DNA of 59,588 bases from a virus (taxonomy: Duplodnaviria > Caudoviricetes), in the IMG/VR virus record IMGVR_UViG_3300021403_000011, positions 1 to 59,588 of that record; one strand, 5' to 3'. Position numbers and translations under genes: made by a program. The first letter of the stretch is position 1. Each line of letters opens with the position of its first letter. Below are positions 9,204 to 53,065 of the stretch, in pieces. Under the pieces are notes generated by a model, which saw only the letters and a program-made list of their open reading frames with translations, was not told where the DNA came from and made no database searches.

Positions 9204-9260
9204 GGGGTCTCCTCTCTGCGCTTGTTATTACCCCGCGTCGATCGCGTAACATCGGGCGAC

Positions 9261-10067
9261 GTGGGTGCGCTCGCATACAACCCAGACGTCGCCATAGCCC
9301 GCGCGAAGTACCAGCAGCGGGTCATCGACGCGCGCACCAGCCTCCAGAACTTCATCGAGTTCGCCGGCCGCTCCGAGGAGGGCGCCGGCATCGAGCTGGA
9401 CCACATCCACAAGATGTGGTGCCACCACCTGACCTACTGCTGGTCGCGCGGCCTGCACGCGGGCATCCTGGCGCCGTTCGGGTCCGGCAAGTCGTCGACC
9501 CTGGCGGTGCCCCTGTCGTGCTACCTGATCGGGCGCAACCCGCAGATCCGGATCAAGTTGGTGGCCAACCACGACGACTACGCCAAGCGCCGGGTCGGCG
9601 CCGCGAAGGCGATCATGGAGACCGTCGAGTACCAGCAGGTCTTCCCGCACATCGTGCCAGGTGAGAAGTGGACCGACCACGAGCTCGAGGTGGCGCGCAT
9701 GCGCGGCCCGATCGATCCCACGCTCCACGCGCGCGGCGTCCTGACTGCCGGCGTCGGCACGCGCGCTGACGTCGAGATCTTCGACGACGTCTGCGACCAG
9801 CTCAACAGTGAGGAGCCCGGCAGCCGGCGCAAGGTGAAGGAGTTCGTGCGCCGCACGTGGCTCTCCCGCCTCGACCAGAAGGCCGGGCGCGCGCTCTGGA
9901 TAGCGACGCCCTGGGACCCGGACGACGCGACCTACGACTTGATGCACGACCAGAAGTGGGCGTTTCTTGTCCAAAGGGTCGCTAAGAGCCACACCGAATA
10001 CGACCAGGAAGTCTTCAATGTCGGCGACGACTATACGGTCGGGTTGGAGGCAATATTGAAGAGATGA
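9261..10067 (+). CDS. terL: terminase large subunit, ATPase half only
   Basis: Walker A APFGSGKS, G.RAD, Walker B IFDD, coupling ATPW; GTG 8 nt after TAACAT. Confidence 0.85.
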   Translation: MGALAYNPDVAIARAKYQQRVIDARTSLQNFIEFAGRSEEGAGIELDHIHKMWCHHLTYCWSRGLHAGILAPFGSGKSSTLAVPLSCYLIGRNPQIRIKLVANHDDYAKRRVGAAKAIMETVEYQQVFPHIVPGEKWTDHELEVARMRGPIDPTLHARGVLTAGVGTRADVEIFDDVCDQLNSEEPGSRRKVKEFVRRTWLSRLDQKAGRALWIATPWDPDDATYDLMHDQKWAFLVQRVAKSHTEYDQEVFNVGDDYTVGLEAILKR

Positions 10068-10597
10068 CCCACGGAAATGCTCGCCTGCGCCGCCCGCTGC
10101 GCATCTTCGAGGACCGAGTGGAGATCCCGCTGACGCGCGGCAAGGTCGCGATCGTCGACCTGATCGATGCGGACCTCGCGTACTTCAATTGGACGACGGA
10201 GGCCAGTCAGGACGGACTGCGGTGGTACGCGCATCGCAATGGCCCGCGTCCCCGTCGGGAATGCATAAAGCTCCACCGCGAGATCGCGAAACGGATGGGG
10301 CTCAAGTTGAACGGGCGGGAAGTCGATCACCACGATGGCGATGGACTCAACTGCCGGCGGGTCAACCTGAGGCGCGCGTCCAGCGGTCAGAACAAGCACA
10401 ACGCGAGGAAGCCGCGCAACAACAAGAGCGGGTTCAAAGGGATCTCATGGAGGCAGGACAGCCAGAAATGGCAGGTCCACATCCAGGCCAATAAGAAAGC
10501 CCACTACCTGGGATTGTTCGCTGACCTGTCAACCGCGGTCGCCGCGCGGTCTGAGGCCGCGCAGCGTCTCCACGGGGAGTACGCCCGGGCCGTGTAA
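10064..10597 (+). CDS. HNH-AP2 homing endonuclease
   Basis: VDHHDGDGLNCRRVNLR..QN; AP2 SGFKGISW..KW..I..YLGLF..AAQRLHGEYA. Confidence 0.9.
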   Translation: MTHGNARLRRPLRIFEDRVEIPLTRGKVAIVDLIDADLAYFNWTTEASQDGLRWYAHRNGPRPRRECIKLHREIAKRMGLKLNGREVDHHDGDGLNCRRVNLRRASSGQNKHNARKPRNNKSGFKGISWRQDSQKWQVHIQANKKAHYLGLFADLSTAVAARSEAAQRLHGEYARAV

Positions 10598-10607
10598 TAT
10601 CCCCCGC

Positions 10608-10964
10608 ATGAGCATCAACGCCAAGGAAGCCAAGGAACTGGGCGACCTCGTGGTCGAGGCGGCGCCGGGCCTCGGGGAGACGCCGCTGGCCAAGCTCCAG
10701 GAGCTCCTGGCCATCGTCATCGCCGAGACCACCAAGACGAACAACGGGGTCGAGGAGCGGGTGCGCGAGGCCGGCAGCATCCCCCCCGACATCACCATCG
10801 TGCTCATGCACTACGGCGCGCTGACGGCGATCTACCGCGACCTCCCGTCCGGCGACAGCCGGCGCGCTCTCATCCTCGCCGGCGAGCAGGTCGGCGCGTT
10901 CATCGCGAAGAAGTACGGCGAGAAGCTCCGAAGTGAGCTCACCGCCAAAACCACCACGCACTGA
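10608..10964 (+). CDS. hypothetical protein
   Basis: ATG 7 nt after TAATAT at 10595. Confidence 0.65.
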   Translation: MSINAKEAKELGDLVVEAAPGLGETPLAKLQELLAIVIAETTKTNNGVEERVREAGSIPPDITIVLMHYGALTAIYRDLPSGDSRRALILAGEQVGAFIAKKYGEKLRSELTAKTTTH

Positions 10965-10981
10965 GAGGAGCCGAACCCGCC

Positions 10982-11482
10982 ATGGCCAAGCCCAGGAACC
11001 CACGCACACCCAAGCAGAAGGACGAGATCGTCAGCCGCGTGAAGCGGATGCTGCCCTGCGCCATCGACGAGAAGGTCACCAAGAAGAAGGAGAAGCGCAT
11101 CGTCCACGCGCTGACCGAGAAGAAGGACGAGCAGGAGAAGATGAACGCGGAGATCCTGCCCCGTCGGAAGAAGATCAAGGAGCTCGAGGGGGAGATCGAG
11201 ACCCTCCGCGCGCAGATCGAGAACGGCACCGAGGACCGCGAGGTGCTGTGCGACGTCGTCAAGGACTTCATCCACCACAAGGTGCTGGTCCGCCGCCGCG
11301 ATACCGGCGACGTCGTCGAGGACCGGACGATGACCGAGGAGGACCGCCAGGAGGACCTGCTCAAGGCCAGGGGTAAGAAGGCCAAGGCCGGCGAGGCGGA
11401 TACCGATGACAATGACCACGGCGACGTCGACGACGAGGGCGAGATCCCACCCGACGGTGACGGTGAGCCCGAGGTCCACTAG
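10982..11482 (+). CDS. hypothetical coiled-coil protein with acidic tail
   Basis: GAGGAG SD, strong codon bias. Confidence 0.7.
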   Translation: MAKPRNPRTPKQKDEIVSRVKRMLPCAIDEKVTKKKEKRIVHALTEKKDEQEKMNAEILPRRKKIKELEGEIETLRAQIENGTEDREVLCDVVKDFIHHKVLVRRRDTGDVVEDRTMTEEDRQEDLLKARGKKAKAGEADTDDNDHGDVDDEGEIPPDGDGEPEVH

Positions 11483-11484
11483 CC

Positions 11485-11586
11485 GTGACGGGCGCCGGCG
11501 AGTACCTGGCCGACCTGGGGTGGCGTGTCGCCACCGCGGCGGTGGTGCTGCTCGGCGCGCTGCTCCTGTTCGGCCCCTGGCCCTAG
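11485..11586 (+). CDS. 33-aa single-TM peptide
   Basis: MTGAGEYLADLGWRVATAAVVLLGALLLFGPWP fills the intergenic gap. Confidence 0.4.
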   Translation: MTGAGEYLADLGWRVATAAVVLLGALLLFGPWP

Positions 11587-11620
11587 ACGGCCGGGGGCCG
11601 AGCGTGGCAGCATCGGTCCC

Positions 11621-12055
11621 ATGAGCACCGTCTGCCGCTACATCTTCCTGCTAGCTCTCGGTGGTTGGCTGTCGTCCCAGGTCGCGAGCTGCGCCACCAC
11701 CACGGCTGTCGTCGCGACGGTCAAGGACTGCGGGAACCAGGTCACGAATACCGTGGCCCGCGGCATCTTGAACGACGTCTCGACGGCGGTCGTGTGCGAC
11801 GGCGGCAGCGTCAGCGCGCTCCCCGCGTGCGTCCTGGCCGGCCTGGCGTCGATCGCCAAGCAGGCGGGCTGGGCGGCGGTCGACTGCGCCCTGGCCGAGG
11901 TCCAGAAGGACGCGGCGAGCAACGTGAACAACCTCCCCGCGGCCTCCGCCCCCGACGAGCAGGAGCTGCTCAGGTGGCGGCGCGCGAGCGCGGCGATCGC
12001 CTGGAGGTCCGGGCCGGACGGGGGATCCGGCACCGCGCCCCCAGGGGCGCCATGA
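11621..12055 (+). CDS. putative lipoprotein
   Basis: Signal-like N-terminus with VASC lipobox-like motif. Confidence 0.6.
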   Translation: MSTVCRYIFLLALGGWLSSQVASCATTTAVVATVKDCGNQVTNTVARGILNDVSTAVVCDGGSVSALPACVLAGLASIAKQAGWAAVDCALAEVQKDAASNVNNLPAASAPDEQELLRWRRASAAIAWRSGPDGGSGTAPPGAP

Positions 12056-12780
12056 GCTGCATCGCCGTCGTCAACCGCGTCCCCGGGCTCGACGACGGGG
12101 ACGCGGCATTCTGGGCCGAAGCCTGGAACCAACAGGCGCGCGAGGTCGCGGACGTGCATGGGGTCCAGTACACCCCGGTGGTCTTCTACGGCACGGCCGA
12201 GGGACTGCCGATCGACTGCCGCATCCTGCAGGTCCTGCCCCAGATCGACGTGCCGGGCGCTTCCGGGTTCCACGACGACGACCTCGGGGTGGTGTTCGCC
12301 GAGATAAAGGTGACGGCCGAGACGTCGGTCACCGGGTCGCACGAGGTCGCCGAGGAGATGGCCGACCCGACGGTCAACCTCTGGGACCCGTTCGACGACG
12401 ACCACGAGCAGGCGCACGAGCTCTGCGACCGCGTCGAGGGCGACTTCTACGTCCAGCAGGCGACGGTGCTCGGCAAGACGCGTTCGGTGCAGGTGTCGAA
12501 CTACCTGCTGCCGTCCGCCTTCGACCCGGGCGGCAAGGCGCCGTTCGACCGGATGGGCAGGCTCACGTCCTGGAACGGGATGACGGCCGGTGGCTACGTG
12601 ATCGTCAGGGACATCGGCACAGGCAAGGTCAGCGACGTCTTCAAGGACGACGGCGTCGGCAGCGGGCACGTCGCCGCGCGCCGCGCCCCCCGCGTCATCC
12701 CGGGGCCTGCCGCCGCCGCCGCTATCACCGAGAAGCTCGGCAGGTCCGGCTCCCGCCTCGCCCGCCGCCTCCGCGGCTAG
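12052..12780 (+). CDS. putative zincin-like metallopeptidase
   Basis: GFH, SHEVAEEMADP, ELCDRV, VSNY motifs; ATGA overlap. Confidence 0.6.
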   Translation: MSCIAVVNRVPGLDDGDAAFWAEAWNQQAREVADVHGVQYTPVVFYGTAEGLPIDCRILQVLPQIDVPGASGFHDDDLGVVFAEIKVTAETSVTGSHEVAEEMADPTVNLWDPFDDDHEQAHELCDRVEGDFYVQQATVLGKTRSVQVSNYLLPSAFDPGGKAPFDRMGRLTSWNGMTAGGYVIVRDIGTGKVSDVFKDDGVGSGHVAARRAPRVIPGPAAAAAITEKLGRSGSRLARRLRG

Positions 12781-12811
12781 GTCAACTGACCGGGCGGGTA
12801 ATATCCCGTCC

Positions 12812-13273
12812 ATGGGTAGCCGCGTCGGCGTCCTGAAGATAGCCGCCAAAAAGCTCGGCCTGGAGTTCGGCTGCGACACATGGCACCCGCGGTCAGCGTT
12901 CGGCGCGGATAAGAGCCGCAATGACGGGTTAGCTGCGGCGTGCACAAAGGCCAGGGCGGCGACGCATCCTCCAGGGTGGGAACCCGCGCCAAAGACGAAC
13001 CCTCTTACGGGTAAGCCGGGGCCGGCTCCGGCCCTTGGCCGCGATGGCGACAAGATCCAAGCCAGGTCGCGGATCAATCGTGAGGTCAAGAACGGTTCAA
13101 GGCCGAACCCAAACACGGTCCCGTGCACCGACTGCGGGCACTTGGGCAAGGATCGGCGACATGAACACGACCACTATCGTGGCTACGCTGCTGAACATCA
13201 TGGGGATGTCCAGGTGGTCTGTAGTCGGTGCCACCACGAGAGGGAGATGAAGCGTGGGCGAAACGTCCATTGA
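12812..13273 (+). CDS. HNH-like endonuclease
   Basis: CTDCG..HEHDH...VVCSRCHH; lower GC; TAATAT 7 nt upstream. Confidence 0.65.
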   Translation: MGSRVGVLKIAAKKLGLEFGCDTWHPRSAFGADKSRNDGLAAACTKARAATHPPGWEPAPKTNPLTGKPGPAPALGRDGDKIQARSRINREVKNGSRPNPNTVPCTDCGHLGKDRRHEHDHYRGYAAEHHGDVQVVCSRCHHEREMKRGRNVH

Positions 13274-14282
13274 ATGGAGCCAATTTACGGTCAACCCCAT
13301 CCGCGCGCGGCCGAAGAACAAGCCGGGCGCGCGCTCGGGGCACTACTGCGAGAAGGTCAGCCCCGGCTGCAAGAACTGCTACAGCTCGAGCTTCCAGCCG
13401 CGATTCGGCATGCCGCGGTTCGAGGACGCGGAGATCGACGACCTGGAGGTCTACCTGGACCCCGAGGTCCTGAGGCAGGTACTGCGCCGCCGGCAGCCGA
13501 CGAAGTTCTTCTGGTGCTCGATGACGGACGTGTTCGGGCGCTGGGTTCCGGACGAGTGGATCGCGGCCTGCTTCGGGGTGATGGCGGCGACGCCCCACCA
13601 CACCCACCAGGTGCTGACGAAACGCGCGGAGCGCCTGCCCCAATGGTTCGAGTGGATCAAGGGCCAGTGTTTTACCGGTAATCCGTTTCTGCAGGATTCG
13701 TATGCCCTGTGTTCCACGTGCGCATTCCTTACGCAGGACGTCGCCGGGATCGATGTCCAGAAAGAATCAAGGTCTCCGATAGCAGGCCGAGCTGCTTGGC
13801 CGCTATCCAACGTCCACGTCGGGGTCAGCGTCGAGACCCAGGAGTACGCCGACCTGCGGATCCCGCTGCTGCGCAAGGTGCCGGCGGCAGTGAAGTTCGT
13901 CAGCGCCGAGCCGCTGCTGGGCCCGGTCAACATCTTCGACGTCGACCAGGAGGACGGCGACTACGGTCCCGGATGGGACCTCAAGCACGTCGAGCACCGG
14001 ACCGACTATGGGACTGGCGTCGAGCACGACGTCGACGCGCAGACGGGCATTGATTGGGTCATCGTGGGCGGCGAGAGCGGGAACCGCGCGCGCGATTGCG
14101 ACCTGGCCTGGATGCGCTCCCTGGTCCGGCAATGCCAGCGCGCCCAGGTCCCGGTCCTGGTCAAGCAGCTCGGCGCGCGGCCGGTCGACGGCGGCCAACT
14201 CATCCAGCTGCGCGGCAGCAAGAAGGGCGGGGACATAGAAGAATTTCCGAACGAGTTGCGGGTCCGGGAGTTCCCGCTGTGA
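13254..14282 (+). CDS. DUF5131 / phage Gp37-Gp68 family protein
   Basis: TSIEW, CEKVSPGCKNCY, SMTDVF, QVLTKR, SAEPLLG, WVIVGGESG, KQLG. Confidence 0.9.
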   Translation: MGETSIEWSQFTVNPIRARPKNKPGARSGHYCEKVSPGCKNCYSSSFQPRFGMPRFEDAEIDDLEVYLDPEVLRQVLRRRQPTKFFWCSMTDVFGRWVPDEWIAACFGVMAATPHHTHQVLTKRAERLPQWFEWIKGQCFTGNPFLQDSYALCSTCAFLTQDVAGIDVQKESRSPIAGRAAWPLSNVHVGVSVETQEYADLRIPLLRKVPAAVKFVSAEPLLGPVNIFDVDQEDGDYGPGWDLKHVEHRTDYGTGVEHDVDAQTGIDWVIVGGESGNRARDCDLAWMRSLVRQCQRAQVPVLVKQLGARPVDGGQLIQLRGSKKGGDIEEFPNELRVREFPL

Positions 14283-14425
14283 AACGCATCTGGCGCTGGC
14301 TGCGCGCGCGCTGGCGGGGAGAGCTGACAGACGAGGAGCTAGGACAAGTTCAGGTGGCGGTGCGCCTGGGGATCCGAGACGCATTTAGGGATCTCGGTTT
14401 TAAGGTCGACGAAAGGGAGCAATGA
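14279..14425 (+). CDS. small hypothetical protein
   Basis: GTGA/ATGA-coupled on both sides. Confidence 0.45.
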   Translation: MKRIWRWLRARWRGELTDEELGQVQVAVRLGIRDAFRDLGFKVDEREQ

Positions 14426-14865
14426 AAGTTCTGTCGGCCTGGCAGCCCTACGCGCAGCTGATGGTGCTGGGCAGCAAGGGCATCGAGACGCGCGGCTGGC
14501 CCCTCGGCGTCGTGCCGCAGCGGATCGCGATCCACGCCGCGAAGTCCGTCAGGGCGCTGCGTGAGGTGTTCACGCAGCCGCACTTCTACGAGGCGCTCGA
14601 AGCGGCCGGCTTCACCCACTCGGAGGCGCTTCCGCTCGGCGCGCTGGTCGGGACCGTCGAGGTCTACGGCTGCACCCCGACGGAGGAGGTCGACCCGGCG
14701 GTGATCGGGATGCGTGAGTACGCATTCGGTGACTACGGCCCCAAGCGCTTCGCGTGGCACCTGCGCAACCAGGTGAGCTTCCCGCCGATCCCGATGGTCG
14801 GGCACCAGGGGCTGCGCGAGCTCCCGCCGGACATCCTGGCGTTCATCCCGGAGCGCGCGCTGTGA
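14422..14865 (+). CDS. ASCH domain protein
   Basis: MKVLS..QPYA..GxKxIETR.W..IAIHA..G.QGL. Confidence 0.85.
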   Translation: MKVLSAWQPYAQLMVLGSKGIETRGWPLGVVPQRIAIHAAKSVRALREVFTQPHFYEALEAAGFTHSEALPLGALVGTVEVYGCTPTEEVDPAVIGMREYAFGDYGPKRFAWHLRNQVSFPPIPMVGHQGLRELPPDILAFIPERAL

Positions 14866-15326
14866 GCGTCGCGATCGTCGGGGAGCTGAACCCATACGGC
14901 GCCAACCCGCGCTATGCGCTTTACCACGAGCCGCGCAACGCGAGCGGCGACCGTCTCCGGCGCATCCTGGGGCTCACGGTGCGCAGCTACGTGCCGTTGC
15001 CGAAGTACAATCTCTGCGTCGGGGACTGGTCGATGAAGGCGGCGCGCGCGCGGGCGCAAGAAATCTGGGACGCGCACGACCTGATCGTCACGCTGGGAGT
15101 CCGGGTGCGCAGCGCCTTCAACCAGCTGATCGGCACGCCGGGTTGTTCTGGGGTCGGCTTGGACATGATCCACGGGCACACGGTGGTCACTCTGCCGCAC
15201 CCGTCAGGGCTGTGCCGCGCGTGGAACATCACGGAGAACGTGGCCGACGCGCGCGAGCTGGTGCAGCGGTACACGGGCCTGCCGTGTGGCGAGGTCGAGG
15301 AGTTCCTCCGCGGGGCCGGGACGTGA
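14862..15326 (+). CDS. uracil-DNA glycosylase superfamily-like protein
   Basis: IVGExNP, SG.RL, IVTLG, LPHPSG motifs. Confidence 0.6.
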   Translation: MSVAIVGELNPYGANPRYALYHEPRNASGDRLRRILGLTVRSYVPLPKYNLCVGDWSMKAARARAQEIWDAHDLIVTLGVRVRSAFNQLIGTPGCSGVGLDMIHGHTVVTLPHPSGLCRAWNITENVADARELVQRYTGLPCGEVEEFLRGAGT

Positions 15327-15556
15327 TCCCCTGCGATGCCGATAGACCCCTGTACCTGGGGGCGTGGCGCAAGAAGGACCGGGTCCGGGATCGGTTCCGC
15401 GGGTGGGCGGACGAGACGCGCGTGACGTCGTGCCGAACGGTCACCGGCGGCCGGTTGGTCACGATCGAGACCCCCGGGTGCCCACCCGCCGAGATCTGGG
15501 CCTGGGAGCTGCTGGAGATCTACGAGGAGGCGCGCGGTGAACCCGACCTTCTGTAA
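15323..15556 (+). CDS. hypothetical protein
   Basis: GTGA-coupled. Confidence 0.5.
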   Translation: MIPCDADRPLYLGAWRKKDRVRDRFRGWADETRVTSCRTVTGGRLVTIETPGCPPAEIWAWELLEIYEEARGEPDLL

Positions 15557-15761
15557 GGGGTGCGGCAAGCCGATCCGGTGGTACCAGGACGACCGCAGCG
15601 GCAAGCGGTTGCCGCTCGACCCTGACCCGCACCCCGACGGGGACATGCGCGTCAACGTCGTGCGAAACGACGTCGCGCGCGTGAAGAAGGGGTCCCACGC
15701 CCCCCTCTACCGCCTGCACTTTGACACCTGCGCCAAACCCTGGAGCGGTCCACGAAAATAG
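15537..15761 (+). CDS. small Zn-binding protein
   Basis: CKGCG.PIRW...PLDPDP...HFDTC. Confidence 0.65.
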   Translation: MNPTFCKGCGKPIRWYQDDRSGKRLPLDPDPHPDGDMRVNVVRNDVARVKKGSHAPLYRLHFDTCAKPWSGPRK

Positions 15762-15764
15762 TTG

Positions 15765-15793
15765 TGGACAACCGTTACGATATTTACTAACGT
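15765..15793 (+). promoter_or_regulatory. sigma70-like promoter with conserved spacer (copy 1)
   Basis: TGGACA-ACCGTTACGATATTTAC(17)-TAACGT. Confidence 0.75.
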
Positions 15794-15851
15794 GGTCTGC
15801 GTAGGACGGGACGGCGATGAGCCGGGCCGAAACGAACCGAGGAGGTTCCCG

Positions 15852-16100
15852 ATGAGCGAGCGTGAGACGAGGTACTTCGAGAGGGTGGGCGCCGCGAAGA
15901 CTCCGGTGGCCCTGGCAGGCGCCTTCCGCCGCGGGCGTCGCAAGGTCGGCGATCGAGTCATGTTCCGCAATGGTTCGGCCCCTGGCGGCTGGCGCGCCGG
16001 TCGCGTGGTTGCCTGCGGGACCCACCGCGCTCGGGTGGCGTTCACGTTCTTCAACGGCCGCACCTCCGAGCGCAGCGTCCCATACGCGGACCTGCAGTAG
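15852..16100 (+). CDS. hypothetical protein
   Basis: GAGGAGG SD downstream of the promoter. Confidence 0.6.
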   Translation: MSERETRYFERVGAAKTPVALAGAFRRGRRKVGDRVMFRNGSAPGGWRAGRVVACGTHRARVAFTFFNGRTSERSVPYADLQ

Positions 16101-16189
16101 CTGCAGCCTTGCCCGCCCGGCCTCACGGGGCCCGGCGGGGAGGGCGCGAGCCACTCCGAACGGACAACCAACGCACCGAGGAGACCACC

Positions 16190-17371: not shown

Positions 17372-17385
17372 CTCGCGCCCTGCTC

Positions 17386-17409
17386 CGGCCCCCGGTGCGA
17401 CGGGGGCCG
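17386..17409 (+). terminator. GC-rich hairpin after DUF932-like gene
   Basis: CGGCCCCCG-GTGCGA-CGGGGGCCG; no U-tract. Confidence 0.35.
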
Positions 17410-17410
17410 C

Positions 17411-18592: not shown

Positions 18593-18595
18593 ACC

Positions 18596-19141: not shown

Positions 19142-19186
19142 CCGTGCCGGGTAATATCAGAACGACCGATGAGAGGAGGGAGCGAC

Positions 19187-19525
19187 ATGGGGGCAGCAGC
19201 GAGGATGATCGAGGACGACCACCGGTGGTTCGCGCCGTCTGACCGGGAGGCGCCGCGGGAGGCGTTCGATGACGTCACCATGGTCACGGAGGTGTCGGCG
19301 GCGGACATCGAGATCGTCGAGGAGGAGGACCTGCCGCCGGTCCTGCCGACGCCCGCGCAGCGGAGCGCGACCCCGCTCCCGACCGGGGAGCGGCGAGACA
19401 CCCGCTTCGCGGAGCTGAGCACGATGGTCGACGAGATGCGCGTCGTCCTGCGCGAGCACAACATGGTGGACCAGGAGATCGACTCGGTCGAGTGGGCCCT
19501 GCGAGAGAGGATCGCCAAGCTATGA
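19187..19525 (+). CDS. hypothetical protein
   Basis: TAATAT at 19152, GAGGAGG SD. Confidence 0.6.
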   Translation: MGAAARMIEDDHRWFAPSDREAPREAFDDVTMVTEVSAADIEIVEEEDLPPVLPTPAQRSATPLPTGERRDTRFAELSTMVDEMRVVLREHNMVDQEIDSVEWALRERIAKL

Positions 19526-19764
19526 GACCGCCATTCGTGACCGTGAACAGACCAGAGCGGGGGGGGGCGCACCACGTCGAGGCGCTGGCCATGGACGTGG
19601 TCAACAAGCTGTATGAGGAGGCGCCGGACCGGTGGGCCCAGCTGTGCCACGAGGCCGTCAAGAGGGGGCTCAAGCCGCTGAAGTACGCCGAGAACCTAAT
19701 CCGCGACCTCCTGCAGACCGCGGTGCTGACCAAGCCCAGAAACGAGAACGGGGCCCAGAGCTGA
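19522..19764 (+). CDS. hypothetical protein
   Basis: ATGA-coupled. Confidence 0.55.
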   Translation: MRPPFVTVNRPERGGAHHVEALAMDVVNKLYEEAPDRWAQLCHEAVKRGLKPLKYAENLIRDLLQTAVLTKPRNENGAQS

Positions 19765-20318
19765 TGCGGTTCGCCACCATGGCGTCCGACCCGGCCTGGA
19801 AGTTCGGCGACAGACTTCCTGGCGCCGGGCGCGGTGCTGCTAAGAACTACCGCGTGATGTCCATCGAGGACATCATGCAGTACCCGATCCCGCCCATGCT
19901 CGACGACTCCTACCTGTTCCTGTGGCGGGTCTCGGCGATGGTCGAGGAGGCATACCGGGTCGTCCGCGCGTGGGACTTCAACCCGAAATCCGAGGTGGTC
20001 TGGGAGAAGCTCACGAAGGAGGGCAAGCCCTGGTTCGGTATGGGGCACCACGTGAGGGCCGCGCACGAGACCTGCATCATCGCTACGCGCGGGAGACCGA
20101 AGCGACTCGCGGCCAACGTCCGCAGCCGGTTCGCAGCGCCGGTACCGCGCGACGCCGATGGCAGGTACATCCACTCGGCCAAGCCCGAGGAGTTCTACAG
20201 GGACGTAGTGATGAGGCTCGCCGGCGGTCCCTACGTCGGGCTGTTCGAGCGCCGGCACCGCCCGGGGTGGGTGACGATCGGCGACCAGGCATGGGGACCA
20301 CCGGAGGTAGGAATATGA
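19764..20318 (+). CDS. MT-A70 family adenine methyltransferase
   Basis: DPAW, Y..MS, LFLW, W.K, GMG...R..HE, HSAKP, LF.R..R.GW. Confidence 0.85.
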   Translation: MRFATMASDPAWKFGDRLPGAGRGAAKNYRVMSIEDIMQYPIPPMLDDSYLFLWRVSAMVEEAYRVVRAWDFNPKSEVVWEKLTKEGKPWFGMGHHVRAAHETCIIATRGRPKRLAANVRSRFAAPVPRDADGRYIHSAKPEEFYRDVVMRLAGGPYVGLFERRHRPGWVTIGDQAWGPPEVGI

Positions 20319-20587
20319 ACACGAGGTCGCAACGGATCGCGAAGGCGCGAGAGTACCTGACGATGGCGCAGCTGAACGACGCCGAGCAGCTCCTCCTGGC
20401 CGAGAGGTTGATCGACGAGGTGTTCGCCCGCGTGTGCCCGATGACGGACCCGCAGATATGCATCGCCGAGGGCTACCTGGCGTCCGCGTCGCACGCCGTC
20501 GAGCAGGCCAGATTGCTGGTCGAGTCGTGGCCGCATGACAGCCTCCCGGCCGACCCGGACCTCGAACCGGAGAACGTCCGTGGATGA
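20315..20587 (+). CDS. hypothetical protein
   Basis: GGAGG SD, ATGA overlap. Confidence 0.55.
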   Translation: MNTRSQRIAKAREYLTMAQLNDAEQLLLAERLIDEVFARVCPMTDPQICIAEGYLASASHAVEQARLLVESWPHDSLPADPDLEPENVRG

Positions 20588-20921
20588 CGACAGGCACCTG
20601 TTCTCCCGCGGGTTCTTGGGGCAACCGGCCCCGGTGCCGAAGATGAGCCCGCTCCCGTGGACGCTCAAGGAGCACTTCAACCACGGTCCTGGCGGTCATG
20701 TCGACCGAGTCTGGGTCGTCCTGGACGCGGACAGCAAGGCGGTCGCGGAAGTCGACCGCTGGCAGGACGCTGACCTGATCGTCAGGTCGGTGGGCACCAG
20801 GGTCGAGCCGGGCACGATCGAGGAGCTGGTCTCGACCGCGAACCAGGCCATCGCCCGGGGGATCGCGCCGCACCTCGTGCTCGCGGCGCTGGAGACCCAC
20901 CTCGTGAGGAAGCTCTCGTGA
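20580..20921 (+). CDS. hypothetical protein
   Basis: SPLPW..DADLIV; overlapping gene chain. Confidence 0.55.
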   Translation: MDDDRHLFSRGFLGQPAPVPKMSPLPWTLKEHFNHGPGGHVDRVWVVLDADSKAVAEVDRWQDADLIVRSVGTRVEPGTIEELVSTANQAIARGIAPHLVLAALETHLVRKLS

Positions 20922-21163
20922 TCCGCAGGTTCTTCCGGTGGCTGCGCCGCCTCCTCCCCTACCCCGGACCCCGGGGGGCGGCGCAGCCTGCAGTGCCGAG
21001 GCGGGTCCTGCACTTGATGGACCCGGGGATGCGCAGCGCCTGCGACGGCGCTGCGGCATCCGCGAAGAACTGGGTGACGGTCCAGCTCGAGCACGTCAAC
21101 TGCAAGGAGTGCCTGCGGATCGGCCGCCGCCGCCGCGTGCGCCGAGTGACGAGGGTGCGGTGA
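20918..21163 (+). CDS. small Cys/His protein
   Basis: GTGA-coupled; H..AC...VNCKEC. Confidence 0.5.
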   Translation: MIRRFFRWLRRLLPYPGPRGAAQPAVPRRVLHLMDPGMRSACDGAAASAKNWVTVQLEHVNCKECLRIGRRRRVRRVTRVR

Positions 21164-21384
21164 TGGGGACGATCGAGACGACCTGCGCCATCCTGGGCGG
21201 CCTGCTCCGCGGCGCGACCCACGACCGGCGTTCGCTGGCGCACGTCCACGGCATGACCGTCGCCTCCGCCGACCGCTACATCCGCCACCTGTCGACGGTC
21301 CCAGGCGTCGTGATCGTCAAGAAGGGGCGGCGGCTGCTGGTGTCCTTCTCATTCGGCGTAGCGCTGAAGGGCCTGGGGATATGA
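21163..21384 (+). CDS. small HTH-like protein
   Basis: TGATG overlap; LA..HGMTVASADRYI. Confidence 0.5.
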   Translation: MGTIETTCAILGGLLRGATHDRRSLAHVHGMTVASADRYIRHLSTVPGVVIVKKGRRLLVSFSFGVALKGLGI

Positions 21385-21710
21385 ACCGCAAGGCCTTCCT
21401 TGAGCGCTACGGTCGCAGCCAGCGCGCCCCAGCGGTCATCCGGGTCCTGGAGGACGCCTTCAAGCTGGAGGCATACCTGCGCCGCAACTCGATCTTCATC
21501 GTGAAGCACGTCCCGGTCGACGGGTTCGTGACCGAGCTCCGCTGGGACCGCCGCACGAAAAGGAGCGAGTTACAGCTGCTGGTGGCGACGCTCCGCCAGA
21601 GCGGGACCGTCCACGTCCGCCCGATCAAACAGTGCAACTCCAGCCTTATCAAGGAACTGGGCCCGGCGCTGGCCACCCTCATACGCCGACTGACCGAGGT
21701 GGCACCGTGA
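21381..21710 (+). CDS. hypothetical protein
   Basis: ATGA-coupled. Confidence 0.55.
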   Translation: MNRKAFLERYGRSQRAPAVIRVLEDAFKLEAYLRRNSIFIVKHVPVDGFVTELRWDRRTKRSELQLLVATLRQSGTVHVRPIKQCNSSLIKELGPALATLIRRLTEVAP

Positions 21711-22009
21711 GCGACCTGGTCCGCTGCAGCTGCGGTTGGTCCGTACCGGAGGGCAGCGTCGTCGGCGTCCCGATGCTCGTGGTCCTGGCGCCGCACGTGA
21801 CCGACATGCTCCAGCACTGGCGCGACGGCCACCAGGTACAGTGCCGGTCCGAGCTGCGCCACCCGATCCGCTCCCTACTCAAGCGCTATCGCCAGCTCCA
21901 GCGCGAGAAGCACCACTCCGGCGACGACGCCGAGAACCTGCGCGAGGAGTTCCGCAGGCGCGGCCTCCGCTTCGAGGCATACGACCCCTTCACCGACGAG
22001 TGGAACTAG
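21707..22009 (+). CDS. hypothetical protein
   Basis: GTGA-coupled, GAGG SD. Confidence 0.55.
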   Translation: MSDLVRCSCGWSVPEGSVVGVPMLVVLAPHVTDMLQHWRDGHQVQCRSELRHPIRSLLKRYRQLQREKHHSGDDAENLREEFRRRGLRFEAYDPFTDEWN

Positions 22010-22011
22010 GC

Positions 22012-22428
22012 GTGCCCGAGGAGACCACCATCAACGGCGAGCGCTGCGAGCTCATCACCGACTTCGAGCAGCTGCGCGAGGCGGACGTCGTCTACGTCGT
22101 CCGCTGCATGTTCTGCGGCGCGGCCCGCCACCGCGCGCTGCTCGGCCGCCGGTACCCGGCCGTGCCGTCCCGCGACCATCTGGGCACCGTCATGGTCTCC
22201 CCGGCCTTCTCGATGCTGCCCAACCCGCACGCGCGCCACAGCGAGGCCGTCCTGGTCCCGGCGAACGTCGACCAGCGGATGATCTGGCGGGTCATCGACC
22301 CCCAGAAGGCGACCGGCGAGGACATGAAGCGGGGCCAGCTGGACGCGCGGCCCCGGCAGAAGACGGACCTCGAGACGCTGGGCCAGGACCTGAAGCAGCA
22401 CCGCAAGCACGACAGGGAACGGTCGTGA
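22012..22428 (+). CDS. hypothetical protein
   Basis: Codon bias; CxxC. Confidence 0.55.
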   Translation: MPEETTINGERCELITDFEQLREADVVYVVRCMFCGAARHRALLGRRYPAVPSRDHLGTVMVSPAFSMLPNPHARHSEAVLVPANVDQRMIWRVIDPQKATGEDMKRGQLDARPRQKTDLETLGQDLKQHRKHDRERS

Positions 22429-22526
22429 GCTGGTGGGACGCCCCGCGCTTCAGCGCGCAGCACGTCGTGGCCTTCGTCATCGCGGTCAGCATCGTCGAGG
22501 TCCTCGTGATCCTGGCCCTGAGATAG
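22425..22526 (+). CDS. 33-aa single-TM peptide
   Basis: MSWWDAPRFSAQHVVAFVIAVSIVEVLVILALR, GTGA-coupled. Confidence 0.5.
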   Translation: MSWWDAPRFSAQHVVAFVIAVSIVEVLVILALR

Positions 22527-22535
22527 GAGGAACCC

Positions 22536-22802
22536 ATGGGAAGTGACAGGCAGAGGTTCAGCACGGTCGCGTGCCCGTTCGGTTGCGACTGGTCGTGGGT
22601 CATCGTTGATTTCGCACCACCGCACTCGGTGCAGCACTACGTCGTCCCGGCGACCGGCGAGGACTCGATCGTCGTGATGGGCGAGGTCAACGGCCTCATC
22701 CCCCAGGTGACCGTCAGCATCCTCCGCCGCCACGCTGGCCAACTGAGCCCCAACTTCCTGTTCAAAAAGTCCCACACCTGCCCGAAGATCACCCGAGGTT
22801 GA
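22536..22802 (+). CDS. hypothetical protein
   Basis: AGGAGG SD. Confidence 0.55.
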   Translation: MGSDRQRFSTVACPFGCDWSWVIVDFAPPHSVQHYVVPATGEDSIVVMGEVNGLIPQVTVSILRRHAGQLSPNFLFKKSHTCPKITRG

Positions 22803-22805
22803 ACA

Positions 22806-22958
22806 TTGGCGAACAACGACCGCCCCGTGACCTGGTGGAACTGCCCGCGCATCAGCATCAAAGACGTGGTCTTGGTGACCGTCGGGTACCAGTTCGGGAG
22901 CTTCATCGGCCAGATCATCGTCGAACTGCTTCGCCGCGCGCTCGGGCTGGTATCCTGA
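22806..22958 (+). CDS. 50-aa hydrophobic peptide
   Basis: GAGG SD, TTG start, fills gap. Confidence 0.35.
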   Translation: MANNDRPVTWWNCPRISIKDVVLVTVGYQFGSFIGQIIVELLRRALGLVS

Positions 22959-22963
22959 CCGCC

Positions 22964-24475
22964 ATGCCTTATGCGAGTAACCGTCAGCGGCGCTTCCTCC
23001 ACGCGGTCAAGCCCGAGGTCGCGGCGGTCTACGACCGGCACGAGCGCCAGGCCCCGGCGATCGGCTCCGCGGTCGACTTCTCGACCCTGCGCCAGCGCGG
23101 CCTGGTCGGCATCTCGGACCGCGTCATCGCCGACCACCTGGCGATGTACGAGCGGTGGTGCGCGGAGCTGCGGCTGCTGGACGCTGCGATCGCCTCGCGC
23201 CCGCTGACCGCGCCGGCGGCGATGCCGAGCGCGGCGGTGGAGGACCTGCTGCGCCGGCGGGTGCGCGACCTGCCGCTCCAGGAGATCAGCGGCCGGCTCG
23301 AGGAGGTGATCGACCAGCTCAAGGGCGAGTTCGTGGCGAGGGGGATCACGTGGTTCCCGACGTTCTACCTGGGCGAGGCGGACTTCTGGACGGCCGATCG
23401 GGCGACGTCGATCAACGTGCCGTGGTACCTGGGCGACGACGTGCTGTGGTCGTTCGTGAACGGGCAGGACGCGCGTTACACGCCTGAGGAGGTACTGGGG
23501 ATCCTGCGGCACGAGGCTGGGCACGCGCTCGGCTACGCGTTCGAGCTCTATCGGCGACAGGACTGGAAGCGCACCTTCGGCAACTTCGGCGCGTCCTACC
23601 GCGACGAGTTCCCGATCGACGCGCAGTCGACGGACTACGTGCGCCACCTCCACGTCATGGACGCCGGCGCCAACGCGCACTACGCCCAGAAGCACCCGGA
23701 CGAGGACTGGGCCGAGACCTTCGCCGTATGGCTCGACCCCGGCAGCCGCTGGCGCGAGGCCTACGCCGCGTGGCCCGGCGCGCTGGCGAAGCTCGAGGCA
23801 GTCGAGCTGATGCTGGTGGGTGAGGGCGCGGCTTACGGCCTGCCGTCGGACACCAGGATCGGCCGGCGGGTCCCGTACGCGACGCTCGACTACACCGTGG
23901 GCGAGTACCTGGGGCAGGCCGAGCAGGACCGGCCAGACCCGCGCGCGGCGGCGCTGCGGCGGCGGCCGGAGGTGTACAGCGCGGTGGTGCTGCACGAGCT
24001 GTACTTCGGTGGGCTTGAGCGCGGCGCCAACGGTCTCGGCCTGGCGCTGACCGGCCGCTTCGCCGAGCTGGCGGGCCCGGACTGGGCAGCTGACTTCCGC
24101 GTGGCGGCGGAGGCGTCCGGCGTCGGCTGGGTGCTCGCTGTCTGGGACCGGCGCGACAACCGGGTGCGCAACGTCCTGGTGAGGGGGCACGACCAGGGCG
24201 TGCCCCCGGGGTGCGAGGTCCTGCTGGCGCTGGACATGCACGAGCACAGCTACGCGGCCGACGTCGGCGCGCGCCGGGACGCGTACGTCGCGGCCTGGTT
24301 CCGCAACGTCTCGTGGTCGGTGGTGAACGGCCGGCTCGACCGCGCGTACCCGCCGCGCGTGGGGGCATTCACGATCGAGAACCCTAACGCGATGTTCGTC
24401 GGGGACCTCGCCGAGCGCAGTGATGCCGTCTTCGTGCGCCGCGACGTCGTCATCAAGCCGCCCGGGGACATATGA
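22964..24475 (+). CDS. Fe/Mn superoxide dismutase-fold protein with inserted Zn-metallopeptidase (Peptidase_Mx-like) domain
   Basis: SOD: ISDRVIADHL.MY, VLHELYF, GW...WD, LLALDMHEHSY; peptidase: RHEAGH, YAQKHPDEDWAETFAVWL. Confidence 0.8.
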   Translation: MPYASNRQRRFLHAVKPEVAAVYDRHERQAPAIGSAVDFSTLRQRGLVGISDRVIADHLAMYERWCAELRLLDAAIASRPLTAPAAMPSAAVEDLLRRRVRDLPLQEISGRLEEVIDQLKGEFVARGITWFPTFYLGEADFWTADRATSINVPWYLGDDVLWSFVNGQDARYTPEEVLGILRHEAGHALGYAFELYRRQDWKRTFGNFGASYRDEFPIDAQSTDYVRHLHVMDAGANAHYAQKHPDEDWAETFAVWLDPGSRWREAYAAWPGALAKLEAVELMLVGEGAAYGLPSDTRIGRRVPYATLDYTVGEYLGQAEQDRPDPRAAALRRRPEVYSAVVLHELYFGGLERGANGLGLALTGRFAELAGPDWAADFRVAAEASGVGWVLAVWDRRDNRVRNVLVRGHDQGVPPGCEVLLALDMHEHSYAADVGARRDAYVAAWFRNVSWSVVNGRLDRAYPPRVGAFTIENPNAMFVGDLAERSDAVFVRRDVVIKPPGDI

Positions 24476-24687
24476 GCCGCCGTCGGATCCCCGAGGCCGC
24501 TAATCACGCCGCGAAAGACCCGCGCGGAATCTGGGGCGAGCTGCATTTCGTCCCTGACGGCAGACGATCGGTCTACTGGGTCTCGCGGCGCTACAGGGGC
24601 GGTTGGGTCATCAACGTCTGGCATCGCTGGGTCCCGAGGACGCACCATCAGGTCAGGCCCGCGGGGATGTTCGACCGTCGCGGGTAA
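24472..24687 (+). CDS. hypothetical protein
   Basis: ATGA-coupled; TAA stop forms the next TAATAT. Confidence 0.5.
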   Translation: MSRRRIPEAANHAAKDPRGIWGELHFVPDGRRSVYWVSRRYRGGWVINVWHRWVPRTHHQVRPAGMFDRRG

Positions 24688-24698
24688 TATCCCCATCG

Positions 24699-24962
24699 AT
24701 GGTCAGCGAGTATGTCGTCGGGCAGTGGCTGTTCGTCCGTTTTTGCGGGATGGACTGCTTCGGGAAGTTCGTCCATGCCAAGGAGCACCAGGTCGTGGTC
24801 GACGTCTTTTATGCCGAGTCAAAACCGGCTAACTATTTACCGACGAGAGCGGTCGATTACTTCGGTCAAAACGGATTGAGGAATCCGCCGTCACGGGTCG
24901 ATTTCGGGCGCGCCGCGTGCTTGATCGCCCCGGTCGAACCGCCATTGGTCCTGCCGGCCTGA
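24699..24962 (+). CDS. hypothetical protein (lower GC)
   Basis: ATG 8 nt after TAATAT. Confidence 0.5.
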   Translation: MVSEYVVGQWLFVRFCGMDCFGKFVHAKEHQVVVDVFYAESKPANYLPTRAVDYFGQNGLRNPPSRVDFGRAACLIAPVEPPLVLPA

Positions 24963-25009
24963 CACCGCGCTGGTGCGCGCGGTCTACCCGGACCTGGTAC
25001 CCTGATCGC

Positions 25010-25276
25010 GTGGTCAAGAAGGCCGCCGCCGCCCGGAAGTCCCGCCGCCAGCTCGCCACGGTGCACGCGCTCCCGGGCGCCGACCGCCCCGAGGACTCGC
25101 TCAAGCGCCTGCACGAGGTGCTTGCCAATGAGGCCCCGAGCGCGGTCATCATCATCAGCGTGGACGCCGGCGGGAAGATCGACGTCAGCAGCTTCGGCAA
25201 GCACGACGACGAGCAGCTGATGGTGGCGGCCGCGCGCATCATGCTGGTCGTGGCGCAGGGCCAGGCCGGCGAGTGA
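25010..25276 (+). CDS. hypothetical protein
   Basis: GTG 6 nt after TACCCT. Confidence 0.55.
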   Translation: MVKKAAAARKSRRQLATVHALPGADRPEDSLKRLHEVLANEAPSAVIIISVDAGGKIDVSSFGKHDDEQLMVAAARIMLVVAQGQAGE

Positions 25277-25305
25277 ACCGCGGCCAGCAGCTCCCGTCGA
25301 TCCCG
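25273..25305 (+). pseudogene. stranded original 5' end of the terminase nuclease gene (MNRGQQLPSIP)
   Basis: Encodes the same 11 aa as 25869-25901; GTGA-coupled to upstream stop; frame stops at 25320. Confidence 0.8.
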
Positions 25306-25323
25306 ACGGTAATATCCTAAGCC

Positions 25324-25872
25324 ATGCGCTTTATCGACCTGACCGGCGACATCTTCGGTCGCTTGGTCGTAATGGAACGAGCGCCGAGTCGCGCGCGGAA
25401 CGTCTACTGGTGGTGCCAATGCTCGTGTGGTCAGCGCTGTGCTGTGATGGGTGAGCTGCTGCGCCTGGGGAAGACGAGTTCATGCGGGTGCCTCAAGGCG
25501 GAGACGTACTACCAGATCGACGTGAAGCGCCCGGCAGTCATCGACGGGGACATTGTCCGCATCCAGCTGACCAAGGGCCTGGTGGCGATCGTCGACCTGG
25601 TCGACGCTGACCTGGCACTGTTCAACTGGTGCGCGCTCAAAGGTCGTGACACCTGGTACGCGGCTAGGAACAAGACCGTACCGGAACGCGAGACCATTCT
25701 CCTGCACCGCGAGGTGGCGAAGCGGGCCGGCCAGGCGATCGATGGGTTGGAAGTGGACCACAAGAACGGCGACGGCTTGGACTGCCGGCGGGACAACCTC
25801 AAGCCCGCCAGCCGTTCCCAGAACGCGATCAACACCCGCCGGTATCGCGAGAAACTGGCTACTCTCGGATGA
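25324..25872 (+). CDS. HNH homing endonuclease with N-terminal Zn domain
   Basis: DLTG..FGRL.V..W.CQCSCG..SSCGC; EVDHKNGDGLDCRRDNL..SQN. Confidence 0.9.
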   Translation: MRFIDLTGDIFGRLVVMERAPSRARNVYWWCQCSCGQRCAVMGELLRLGKTSSCGCLKAETYYQIDVKRPAVIDGDIVRIQLTKGLVAIVDLVDADLALFNWCALKGRDTWYAARNKTVPERETILLHREVAKRAGQAIDGLEVDHKNGDGLDCRRDNLKPASRSQNAINTRRYREKLATLG

Positions 25873-26627
25873 ATCGCGGGCAACAACTGCCGTCGATACC
25901 GTGCTGGTCCTTAAAGCACCCCAAGAAGGCCCTCGACGACCTGGCGCGCGACGAGGGGACGTGGAACCGCGGCTACGCGATGAACCCGATCTCCCCGGGC
26001 GAGCTGAAGTTCCCCAACTTTGAGAAGTGCCGGAAAACCGGGATCCTGCTGTCGGACCTGCACCAGCGCCAGCTGCCGGCCTACGTCGGGGTCGACCTGA
26101 GCTCCAAGAACCGCCCCGGCAACGCGATCGTGGTCGTGGGGCTCGAGCCACCGCTGATGCGCCGGTACCTGCTCGAAGTCCGGTTCGGCGCCTGGACCAG
26201 CCCGGACACCGCGTCGAACCTGGCCGAGGTCTGCTCCCACCACAACGTCCAGTGGATCCAGGTCGAGAACAACGCCTACCAGCAGGCCATCATCGACTGG
26301 GTCAAGAAGGAGAAGGCCAAATTCCCCTACTGGATGAAGATCATGCCGTTCACCACCGGCGCGGGGAAGGCAGACCCGCAGTACGGCCTGCCGGGCCTGG
26401 AGGTCGAGTTCAAGAACGACGGCTGGGTGATCCCCTACTCCGAGTACGAGAGCCACCCGACGACCTGCCTGTGCGACTGGTGCCACCTCGACAATGAGTT
26501 CCGGAACTACCCGCGCGCGGCGACGAGCGATGGCGTGATGGCGACCTGGTTCGCGAGGGACGCGGCGAACAAGTGGGCGCCCCGGACCGGCGGCGCCCGG
26601 GTGAAGGGGAACGTCCGGCGCAGGTAA
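25869..26627 (+). CDS. terL: terminase large subunit, RNase H-fold nuclease half
   Basis: Y.MNP, VGVDLS, IVVVG, VENNAYQ, YP..TSDGVMA. Confidence 0.8.
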   Translation: MNRGQQLPSIPCWSLKHPKKALDDLARDEGTWNRGYAMNPISPGELKFPNFEKCRKTGILLSDLHQRQLPAYVGVDLSSKNRPGNAIVVVGLEPPLMRRYLLEVRFGAWTSPDTASNLAEVCSHHNVQWIQVENNAYQQAIIDWVKKEKAKFPYWMKIMPFTTGAGKADPQYGLPGLEVEFKNDGWVIPYSEYESHPTTCLCDWCHLDNEFRNYPRAATSDGVMATWFARDAANKWAPRTGGARVKGNVRRR

Positions 26628-26637
26628 TATCCTGGGC

Positions 26638-27223: not shown

Positions 27224-27234
27224 CATCGGCCCCC

Positions 27235-37558: not shown

Positions 37559-37567
37559 ATTGGGGGC

Positions 37568-53027: not shown

Positions 53028-53065
53028 GCCTGGGATATTACCTGCCGGTCCGGTAGCATCGTCCC

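Follow-up and report, generated by a model that had tools for sequence, protein, structure and literature searches.

The large terminase subunit (TerL) is a hallmark gene of tailed phages and serves as a one-piece marker for their detection, for genome completeness, and for phylogeny. To our knowledge, its ATPase and its nuclease are coupled in one chain in every solved system. The linear sequence of an uncultured Caudoviricetes virus, IMG/VR record IMGVR_UViG_3300021403_000011 (positions 1-59,588, the whole stretch of 59,588 bp that was analyzed, hereafter the window), raises the question of whether TerL can also be built from two distant genes and, if so, whether the endonuclease genes seen at the break have made it. 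A preliminary description of the window had proposed a terminase split into an ATPase gene and a nuclease gene, with paralogous HNH genes at both split ends, and had pointed out that free-standing endonucleases can fracture genes that still work in two pieces. The analysis presented here points to a two-gene TerL, the two chains of which probably form one functional protomer, with the HNH genes arriving later.

The two halves and their match to TerL

Both halves are encoded on the plus strand and match the same TerL profile, PHROG 38, which has 760 positions. The ATPase half (9261-10067, 268 amino acids [aa]) covers profile positions 258-471 with an E value (E) of 1.9e-27, and the nuclease half (25869-26627, 252 aa) covers positions 484-697 (E 1.1e-12), with 15,801 nt between the stop of the former and the start of the latter. 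Judged by these matches, the two halves are consecutive parts of a single TerL profile, and the split over some 15.8 kb stands as first described, together with the coordinates and overlaps given there. The open reading frame (ORF) of the ATPase half is open from 9045 (9045-10067). GTG 9261 is most likely its true start, because a DNA methyltransferase gene with a PHROG match and a coding-type GC pattern fills 8454-9203 on the minus strand, and because residue 3 of P0065, the nearest homologue of the ATPase half (279 aa, 58% identity), aligns to residue 3. Since the methyltransferase gene is divergent from it, the ATPase half is the first gene of a plus-strand block.

The ATPase half carries a Walker A motif GSGKS (K77), a Walker B motif VEIFDD (D175/D176), and a coupling motif ATPW (T216). 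It stops at 10067, 50 residues past ATPW and thus soon after this motif, as had been noted before, and has a variable tail after GDDY. Across 36 ATPase sequences, K77, D175, D176, T216, R203, and D222 are invariant or nearly so. The Pfam model Terminase_6N reaches 15.7 bits on this half, under its cut-off of 22 bits, and the only PDB sequences matched are those of T7 gp19 (4bij, E 1e-3) and PhiV-1 TerL (8dgc_E, E 2e-3).

A Pfam scan of the nuclease half gave no match. Residues D76, E133, and D221 are invariant among 24 nuclease-half sequences, and we read them as the putative catalytic acidic triad of an RNase H-like nuclease. The AlphaFold2 model of this half alone has a predicted local distance difference test score (pLDDT) of 77.9, and a Foldseek search with the model placed terminase nuclease domains on top with a probability of 1.00, the matches being G20c (5m1f), SPP1 (2wc9), T4 (3ezk), PhiV-1 (8dgc_E), D6E, and herpesviruses (4iox, which we take to be the pUL15 nuclease domain). 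Residues 1-45, among which L7, W13, L22, and G35 are nearly invariant, form a strand and two helices that complete the ATPase domain in the model of both halves described below; in the model of this half alone, residues 1-40 are poorly ordered (pLDDT 43-60).

With regard to the features by which a TerL is recognized, an additional strand catalytic glutamate (ASCE) ATPase with Walker A, Walker B, and coupling motifs is present in the ATPase half, and a C-terminal RNase H-like nuclease with the putative acidic triad is present in the nuclease half. The two domains do not share one polypeptide in the window, and the same holds for 12 relatives. The place at the head of the morphogenesis module, near the portal gene, is taken by the nuclease half only, with the ATPase half lying outside the module.

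Distribution of the split among relatives

A nuclease profile built from 24 stand-alone halves retrieved 80 viral loci and 7 loci from genome collections, and 16 related records (G001 and 15 more, G002-G016) were searched whole for the ATPase half. In 12 of these 16 records the ATPase half lies 10.5-18.0 kb upstream of the nuclease half, and both halves are present in all 7 records that are at least 90% complete. As an example, G001 (89 kb) has its ATPase half at 37227-37964 and its nuclease half at 52126-52884 on the same strand, with a gap of 14.2 kb, and these are 38% and 46% identical, respectively, to the halves of the window. Downstream of the nuclease half, G001 and the window are collinear through portal, head, and tail; between the halves, they have almost nothing in common. 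Measured from the ATPase end to the nuclease start, the gap is 15.3 kb in G002 as well as in G014, where the arrangement is that of G002, 13.9 kb in G003, 15.7 kb in G004, 16.9 kb in G005, 18.0 kb in G006, 15.1 kb in G007, 10.5 kb in G009, 13.6 kb in G010, 13.0 kb in G012, and 13.2 kb in G013. The order is reversed in G016 (81.9 kb, 100% complete), where the ATPase half follows the nuclease half at a distance of 1.05 kb. No match to the ATPase half was found in the fragments G008, G011, and G015 (27-67% complete).

Among the 87 loci, 49 are fused single ORFs (including L048), 24 have no ATPase half within the locus (upstream sequence reaches at least 9.4 kb in 16 of these), 13 are split, and 1 is without match. 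Eight of the 13 split loci have adjacent halves, with ORFs that overlap or nearly abut in different frames, four have gaps of 0.6, 1.8, 5.3, and 8.1 kb, and one is reversed. Thus, the survey of split versus fused relatives proposed in the preliminary description showed the split to recur, and far apart in the majority of the records searched whole, next to fused forms in 49 of the 87 loci. Comparison of these records indicates that the split is old and conserved across a large clade of relatives.

At the protein level, stand-alone nuclease halves fall into 58 clusters (90% identity), with lengths of 216-277 aa and 38-83% identity to that of the window, the closest being P0005-P0007 (74-83%). 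Only two nuclease relatives are longer, namely one intein-bearing half and one fused TerL at 33% identity. The best 150 representatives among the ATPase-half matches comprise many stand-alone proteins of ~250-320 aa, fused ones of ~500-560 aa, and intein-bearing ones of ~600-690 aa. In a set of 50,697 phage records, neither DNA searches with both junction regions nor a protein search with the nuclease half gave a match, and the ATPase half matched full-length terminases only, at ~26% identity. A locus scan with the single ATPase half as query returned no relative.

Inteins interrupt the TerL halves of the relatives P0063, P0067, and P0071 at three conserved sites. The first is the nuclease motif DGVMA|C...HN|C (PF13403, the family flagged in P0063), the second lies immediately ahead of Walker B, and the third within Walker A (GSGK|C...HN|SS). 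The ATPase halves of G006 and G012 have in-frame inserts of ~1.2 kb.

In four contigs, the nuclease half is frameshifted after ~37 codons (L032, positions 9880-10675, which belongs to record G016, and L028, L029, and L030). In these, the N-terminal strand-helix segment would be a separate ORF of 37 aa or would need a programmed frameshift.

A 256-aa protein is encoded directly upstream of the ATPase half in one subclade (L032 10849-11619), with homologues in G007, L024, G006, and G010; in G016, the order is nuclease half, this gene, ATPase half. We read its sequence as an N-terminal helix-turn-helix-like segment followed by a helical C-terminal part, and it may be a small terminase (TerS-like) that travels with the ATPase gene. 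It matches no named PHROG and has no detectable homologue in the window.

Cut site and shared history of the halves

When split and fused forms were aligned together, far, mid-distance, and adjacent split forms were all found to be cut at one and the same alignment position. Every N-terminal half ends past the conserved stretch '...Q.V..D...I..EV...YP', and every C-terminal half begins with '(L)P.W..W....L...R..G.R.F.RG(Y/F)'. In fused TerLs, a loop of variable length bridges both stretches at the cut position, and L093 has ~100 extra residues there. The halves are collinear with fused TerLs from end to end, and no extra intein-sized sequence is present.

A quick maximum-likelihood tree was built from the nuclease parts (82 rows, root not inferred). 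The far-apart forms occupy a single region of the tree, the joining node of which has a weak support of 84% in the Shimodaira-Hasegawa-like approximate likelihood ratio test (SH-aLRT). A nested subgroup with 98% support includes the adjacent-split L024 and L027 and the reversed G016. Mid-distance and adjacent splits are placed just outside the far-apart region, and fused forms are more distant. The direction of change between split and fused states is our reading of an unrooted tree.

The pairwise identities of both halves correlate across 26 split genomes (325 pairs, r=0.79), and none of 2,000 Mantel permutations was as high; thus, the halves do not derive from different TerL clades, an outcome that would have spoken against the split. 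Nei-Gojobori dN is alike in both halves, and dN/dS ranges from 0.23 to 0.54 (10 estimable comparisons, 2 saturated).

HNH genes at the ends of the split

The two HNH genes abut the halves exactly at the split. HNH1 (10064-10597, plus strand) matches Pfam HNH_3 with 25.2 bits (cut-off 24.8) and PHROG 99 (E 4.6e-35), and its start overlaps the stop of the ATPase half as ATGA. HNH2 (25324-25872, plus strand) matches HNH_3 with 32.8 bits under the same cut-off, as well as PHROG HNH families, and its stop overlaps the start of the nuclease half, again as ATGA. The two proteins are 54% identical over 117 aa (E 1e-38), so that sequence and alignment agree with the paralogous, overlapping HNH genes that had been described.

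That free-standing endonucleases made the split is not supported, as relatives share the cut without HNH genes at those sites. No HNH gene abuts either TerL half in any of the 13 relative spans examined. G001 has no HNH homologue in the range of 5-85 kb, whereas one is located two genes ahead of the nuclease half in G002 and another before the portal gene in G016. In G002, the ATPase half is directly followed by homologues of window 10608-10964 and 10982-11482, with no HNH gene between them, and therefore HNH1 occupies what is an intergenic spacer elsewhere. In G013, the ATPase half is directly followed by a gene (L104 14799-15149) that resembles HNH2 in the N-terminal Zn-ribbon module alone; the remainder of its translated sequence shows no apparent HNH domain.

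An older start of the nuclease gene is preserved on the other side of HNH2. The remnant of the former 5' end (25273-25320, plus strand) reads (V/M)NRGQQLPSIPT, then stop. Its positions 25273-25308 are GTG AAC CGC GGC CAG CAG CTC CCG TCG ATC CCG ACG, and the live nuclease gene begins ATG AAT CGC GGG CAA CAA CTG CCG TCG ATA CCG. Compared with 25869-25901, 11 of 11 codons encode the same residues; of the 7 nucleotide differences, 6 are synonymous changes at third positions and one is in the start codon. In codon 12 (T), the remnant agrees with relative P0005. The old start at 25273 that had been pointed out before is thus real, the sequence there repeating the opening codons of the nuclease gene. 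Its GTG overlaps the TGA stop of the ORF 24917-25276, and L024 and L027 likewise have a GTGAAC start that overlaps an upstream stop, in their case that of the ATPase half. From the duplicated 5' end and the GTG/TGA overlap it follows that the nuclease gene was already free-standing and translationally coupled before HNH2 was inserted, and the claim that the split predates HNH2 is thereby upheld. The HNH2 cassette was inserted after codon 12 of the nuclease gene, bringing a recoded replacement 5' end with it. No insertion footprint was found for HNH1. Judged by sequence comparison, the split is much older than either HNH gene, and the HNH genes at the split ends are later arrivals.

An HNH motif is present in both genes, an insertion footprint in the case of HNH2, and presence among syntenic relatives is sporadic, as expected of homing endonucleases. 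We infer homing activity from these features, and both genes would be mobile, homing-type elements that settled late at conserved gene ends. Their modules differ. HNH1 consists of an HNH core and a C-terminal module (AP2-like in our reading), without an N-terminal Zn-ribbon, and HNH2 of an N-terminal Zn-ribbon and an HNH core, without the AP2-like module. The HNH copy of G002 has all three (Zn-ribbon, HNH core, and, in our reading, the AP2-like C-terminus). HNH1 or HNH2 may thus be impaired, each being short of one module of the G002 copy. The idea that they are two pieces of one broken gene was rejected, since the HNH core is complete in both and the modules that they lack are not at the sides expected of such a break. 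HK97 gp74 is an HNH protein of the packaging-helper type; a role of this type was judged unlikely here, as relatives are without HNH genes at these sites.

A two-chain terminase and its alternatives

The complex prediction called for in the preliminary description was run with both halves and gave an ipSAE interface score of 0.79 (three runs: 0.80, 0.79, and 0.79), compared with 0.14 for the best control. For comparison, 58 of 80 solved complexes and 2 of 110 mismatched pairs come up to this mark. Across the runs, at least 75% of the contacts are in agreement, and the partner pLDDT is at least 74. The modeled interface sets residues 4-42 of the C-terminal half against residues 237-266, 45-52, 70-76 (the Walker A loop), and 216-222 (the coupling motif) of the N-terminal half, with confident strand-to-strand contacts between residues 244-251 of the N-terminal half and 6-12 of the C-terminal half. 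The disorder of residues 1-40 of the nuclease chain when modeled alone fits a segment that folds on its partner.

We infer assembly of the two chains in trans, and the results support this reading, which the preliminary description had already put forward. Gene 1 (9261-10067) encodes the RecA-like ATPase core, and gene 2 (25869-26627), at the head of the structural module, a short N-terminal segment plus the RNase H-like nuclease. The N-terminal segment of the nuclease chain (~45 residues) would dock on the ATPase core next to Walker A and the coupling motif and would replace the lid or linker of a one-chain TerL, so that this portion of the motor domain would be encoded by the nuclease gene. 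Both chains together would make up a single functional TerL protomer, to be assembled on the portal. The cut is ancestral to a large clade; after the split, the genes acted as separate units, with the gap between them filling up with fast-changing accessory genes. A more far-reaching version appears possible but rather doubtful: the ATP site of the motor would be completed only when the ~45 N-terminal residues of the nuclease chain dock, so that packaging would be licensed from the late structural operon, and the genes would be independently movable modules (far, adjacent, or reversed), the conserved ends of which serve as landing sites for homing endonucleases and inteins.

Several points weigh against the two-chain protomer. 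The complex score may stem from a memory of one-chain TerLs, in which case it shows the likeness of the pair to a cut TerL and not binding. The dN/dS values are not very low, and a bias in the G+C content of third codon positions probably depresses dS. No small terminase candidate was identified in the window. In the frameshifted subgroup (G016 and three contigs), not every member need be functional. Finally, CheckV estimates the completeness of the 59,588-bp window at 68%, and a second TerL in the missing third is excluded only by analogy with relatives.

If the chains formed no stable TerL-like protomer, the ATPase half alone might act as a portal motor like gp16 of phi29, with the nuclease recruited separately for end-cutting or headful packaging. 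Phage phi29 gp16 packages without a nuclease, gene positions are labile, with far, adjacent, and reversed orders all found, and in one subclade it is the ATPase half, not the nuclease half, that the TerS-like gene accompanies. However, the cut falls inside a region kept as one domain by fused relatives, residues 1-45 of the nuclease chain are conserved, poorly ordered alone, and packed on the ATPase core in the model, and the halves co-diverge strongly, which makes separate action of the two proteins improbable. It is still less probable that one chain is restored by trans- or cis-splicing of RNA across the block or by a split intein. Such elements do occur in related settings, as relatives in the clade carry the true inteins mentioned above in both halves, and TerL genes of Jug phages are reported to hold group I introns that splice (PMC12880540). 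In the window, though, an Rfam scan found no family at gathering score, a permissive intron scan of both junctions found no intron, and neither half holds a Hint/intein domain at E<=0.1; the rejoining of the halves through Hint blocks or a group I/II intron RNA thus finds no basis, in line with the absence of such motifs noted earlier. Moreover, both halves can be aligned with fused TerLs over their whole length, the block between the halves comprises ~24 translated genes, and the nuclease gene of G016 precedes the ATPase gene, which speaks against cis-splicing.

The halves could also be decaying remnants, with another terminase in the missing third of the genome doing the packaging. The estimated completeness and the subgroup with a frameshifted nuclease half would agree with this, but no catalytic residue varies among the 36 ATPase and 24 nuclease sequences, neither half reaches a dN/dS of 1, and the nuclease half retains the canonical TerL place ahead of the portal gene. 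An intact terL elsewhere was not encountered: the window has a single copy of each half, and in five 100%-complete relatives, searches with the three Pfam families Terminase_6N, TerL_ATPase, and Terminase_3 found only a weak match to the ATPase half itself. Decay is accordingly very unlikely. An assembly artefact, i.e., two phages or genome parts misjoined, is scarcely credible. The window is a metagenome contig, and the only sequencing run found to contain its region, labeled as soil metagenome, is probably its own source and not independent data. Nonetheless, a separate assembly of this run (Logan) tiles 8500-27500 at an even depth of 8-11, and its contigs cross both junctions with 0 differences (8500-11732 spans ATPase half and HNH1, 23698-27500 spans HNH2 and nuclease half). 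Misassembly is further contradicted by the same arrangement in 12 other records from other assemblies. The two-chain protomer encoded by two genes is therefore the explanation retained in the following.

Comparison with known systems and implications

The one-chain T7-type TerLs (T7 gp19 'DNA maturase B', 4BIJ; PhiV-1, 8DGC chain E; PHROG 38) share their ATPase motifs and the RNase H-like nuclease with the window. In contrast to them, the clade of the window has two genes and probably two chains, cut inside the motor domain and 10-18 kb apart, with unrelated genes between them. In phage Aeh1, nrdA-a and nrdA-b, whose products work together, are a gene in pieces beside the free-standing homing endonuclease gene mobE. 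As in Aeh1, an essential enzyme is found here in two pieces with an endonuclease gene at the break; unlike in Aeh1, the HNH genes did not make the break, and the halves are far apart and not separated by an endonuclease gene alone. The herpesvirus pUL15 gene has two exons flanking other genes, and mRNA splicing rejoins them into one chain. The interruption of the terminase coding region by other genes and the homologous ATPase/nuclease architecture are shared with pUL15, but pUL15 is spliced.

Further cases are described in the passages of published reports drawn on here. Group I introns interrupt terL of Jug phages and splice out (PMC12880540). As there and in the intein-bearing relatives, TerL is favoured by mobile elements in the window, but in those genes splicing restores one chain, whereas here no splicing element is detectable. 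Parabacteroides phage phiPDS1 has two adjacent TerL coding sequences, for which its authors considered a codon-table or assembly issue (PMC10773633). The TerL domains likewise form two coding sequences here; in contrast to phiPDS1, the split is conserved and the halves are distant instead of adjacent. Short frame-disrupting inserts are described for ter genes of Streptomyces phages (PMC10732093), and for jumbo phages TerL is treated as a universal two-domain protein (PMC7824862). Full-text searches, with supplements and subscription papers outside their scope, found no report of far-apart TerL halves, and such conserved halves appear to be unpublished as far as the literature search reaches.

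A clade with distant halves cut inside the motor domain would imply that the coupling of motor and nuclease is achievable between chains, and it would offer a natural split system for dissecting the cross-talk of the two. If real, such a natural two-component terminase would be at hand for studying why TerL consists of a single chain in all other cases. Annotation pipelines will miss or mis-score such genomes, as the ATPase half is below the Pfam threshold and the nuclease half gives nothing. The window also provides a clean footprint of an endonuclease gene inserting at the start of an essential gene together with a recoded replacement.

Gene content of the window

The window has a G+C content of ~69%, and the plus strand carries nearly all genes. 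The intervening block (10598-25272, plus strand) holds ~22-26 plus-strand genes with mostly unassigned function. A crude GC-frame gene call gave 24 non-overlapping plus-strand ORFs between the halves, including both HNH genes, plus a few in gaps, which corrects the more than 30 unrelated genes counted in the preliminary description to ~24-28. Few of the block genes have homologues in relatives. They include DUF5131 (13254-14282, plus strand) and an MT-A70 methyltransferase (19632-20318, plus strand). A 558-aa protein (22799-24475, plus strand) matches the Pfam Fe/Mn superoxide dismutase C-terminal domain (E 2.9e-13), with a zinc metallopeptidase Pfam match just under cut-off, and, in 11 of 13 relatives examined, is encoded upstream of the nuclease half, mostly close to it. 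Excision of the block was rejected: no long direct repeats flanking it were found, and hence there is no att-like support for such a scenario, and no joint in the contig layout links 10067 to 25869. Short contig 'joints' were not accepted as real links either, as they have only 21 letters on one side and were taken to be chance matches in GC-rich DNA.

Outside the block, an apiosidase-like protein of 851 aa is encoded at 3739-6294. Right after the nuclease half lies a ParB-methyltransferase fusion (27605-29050), one of three DNA methyltransferase genes of the window. The portal protein (30275-31972, plus strand, PHROG 64) is the first gene of the head/tail module that follows the nuclease half. 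It is followed by an HNH-like gene unrelated to HNH1 and HNH2 (33824-34273, PHROG 589, E 6e-8), situated in the head module between the portal gene and that of a MuF-like head morphogenesis protein (37568-38491, PHROG match), and by a major head protein (41709-43094, PHROG match) and a tail sheath (47219-48904, weak PHROG match). Judged by this gene content, the phage is contractile-tailed and myovirus-like. Scans of the window found no tRNA and, for sigma-70 promoters and terminators, no signal above shuffles. The single sequencing run found to contain the region is listed as DNA, and no RNA data set is listed as containing it.

As to the host, the 87,962-bp record L090 was binned in an uncultured Myxococcales metagenome-assembled genome. 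Its nuclease half is 53% identical to that of the window, and no ATPase half lies within 10 kb upstream of it. This one record provides a weak lead to Myxococcales as the host of the clade.

The motif GTAATATCC occurs 13 times in the window with at most 1 mismatch, versus 1.46 expected, and none of 100 shuffles reached 13. Copies are located on the plus strand at 1843, 10594, 12798, 19151, 24684, 25309, 26624, 34270, 36275, 38488, and 59372 and on the minus strand at 53033, each of these 12 just upstream of a likely gene start. Most copies hold the TAA stop of the preceding gene, and 9 are 6-9 nt before the next ATG. The motif was not found in 13 relative loci. A loose GACCG-N5-6-GG is present upstream of GTAATATCC, one copy makes up the 5' boundary of the HNH2 cassette, and a variant, GTAACATCG, lies 7 nt ahead of the GTG start of the ATPase half. 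A -10-like promoter for leaderless mRNAs is one possible function of the motif, and a re-initiation signal is another.

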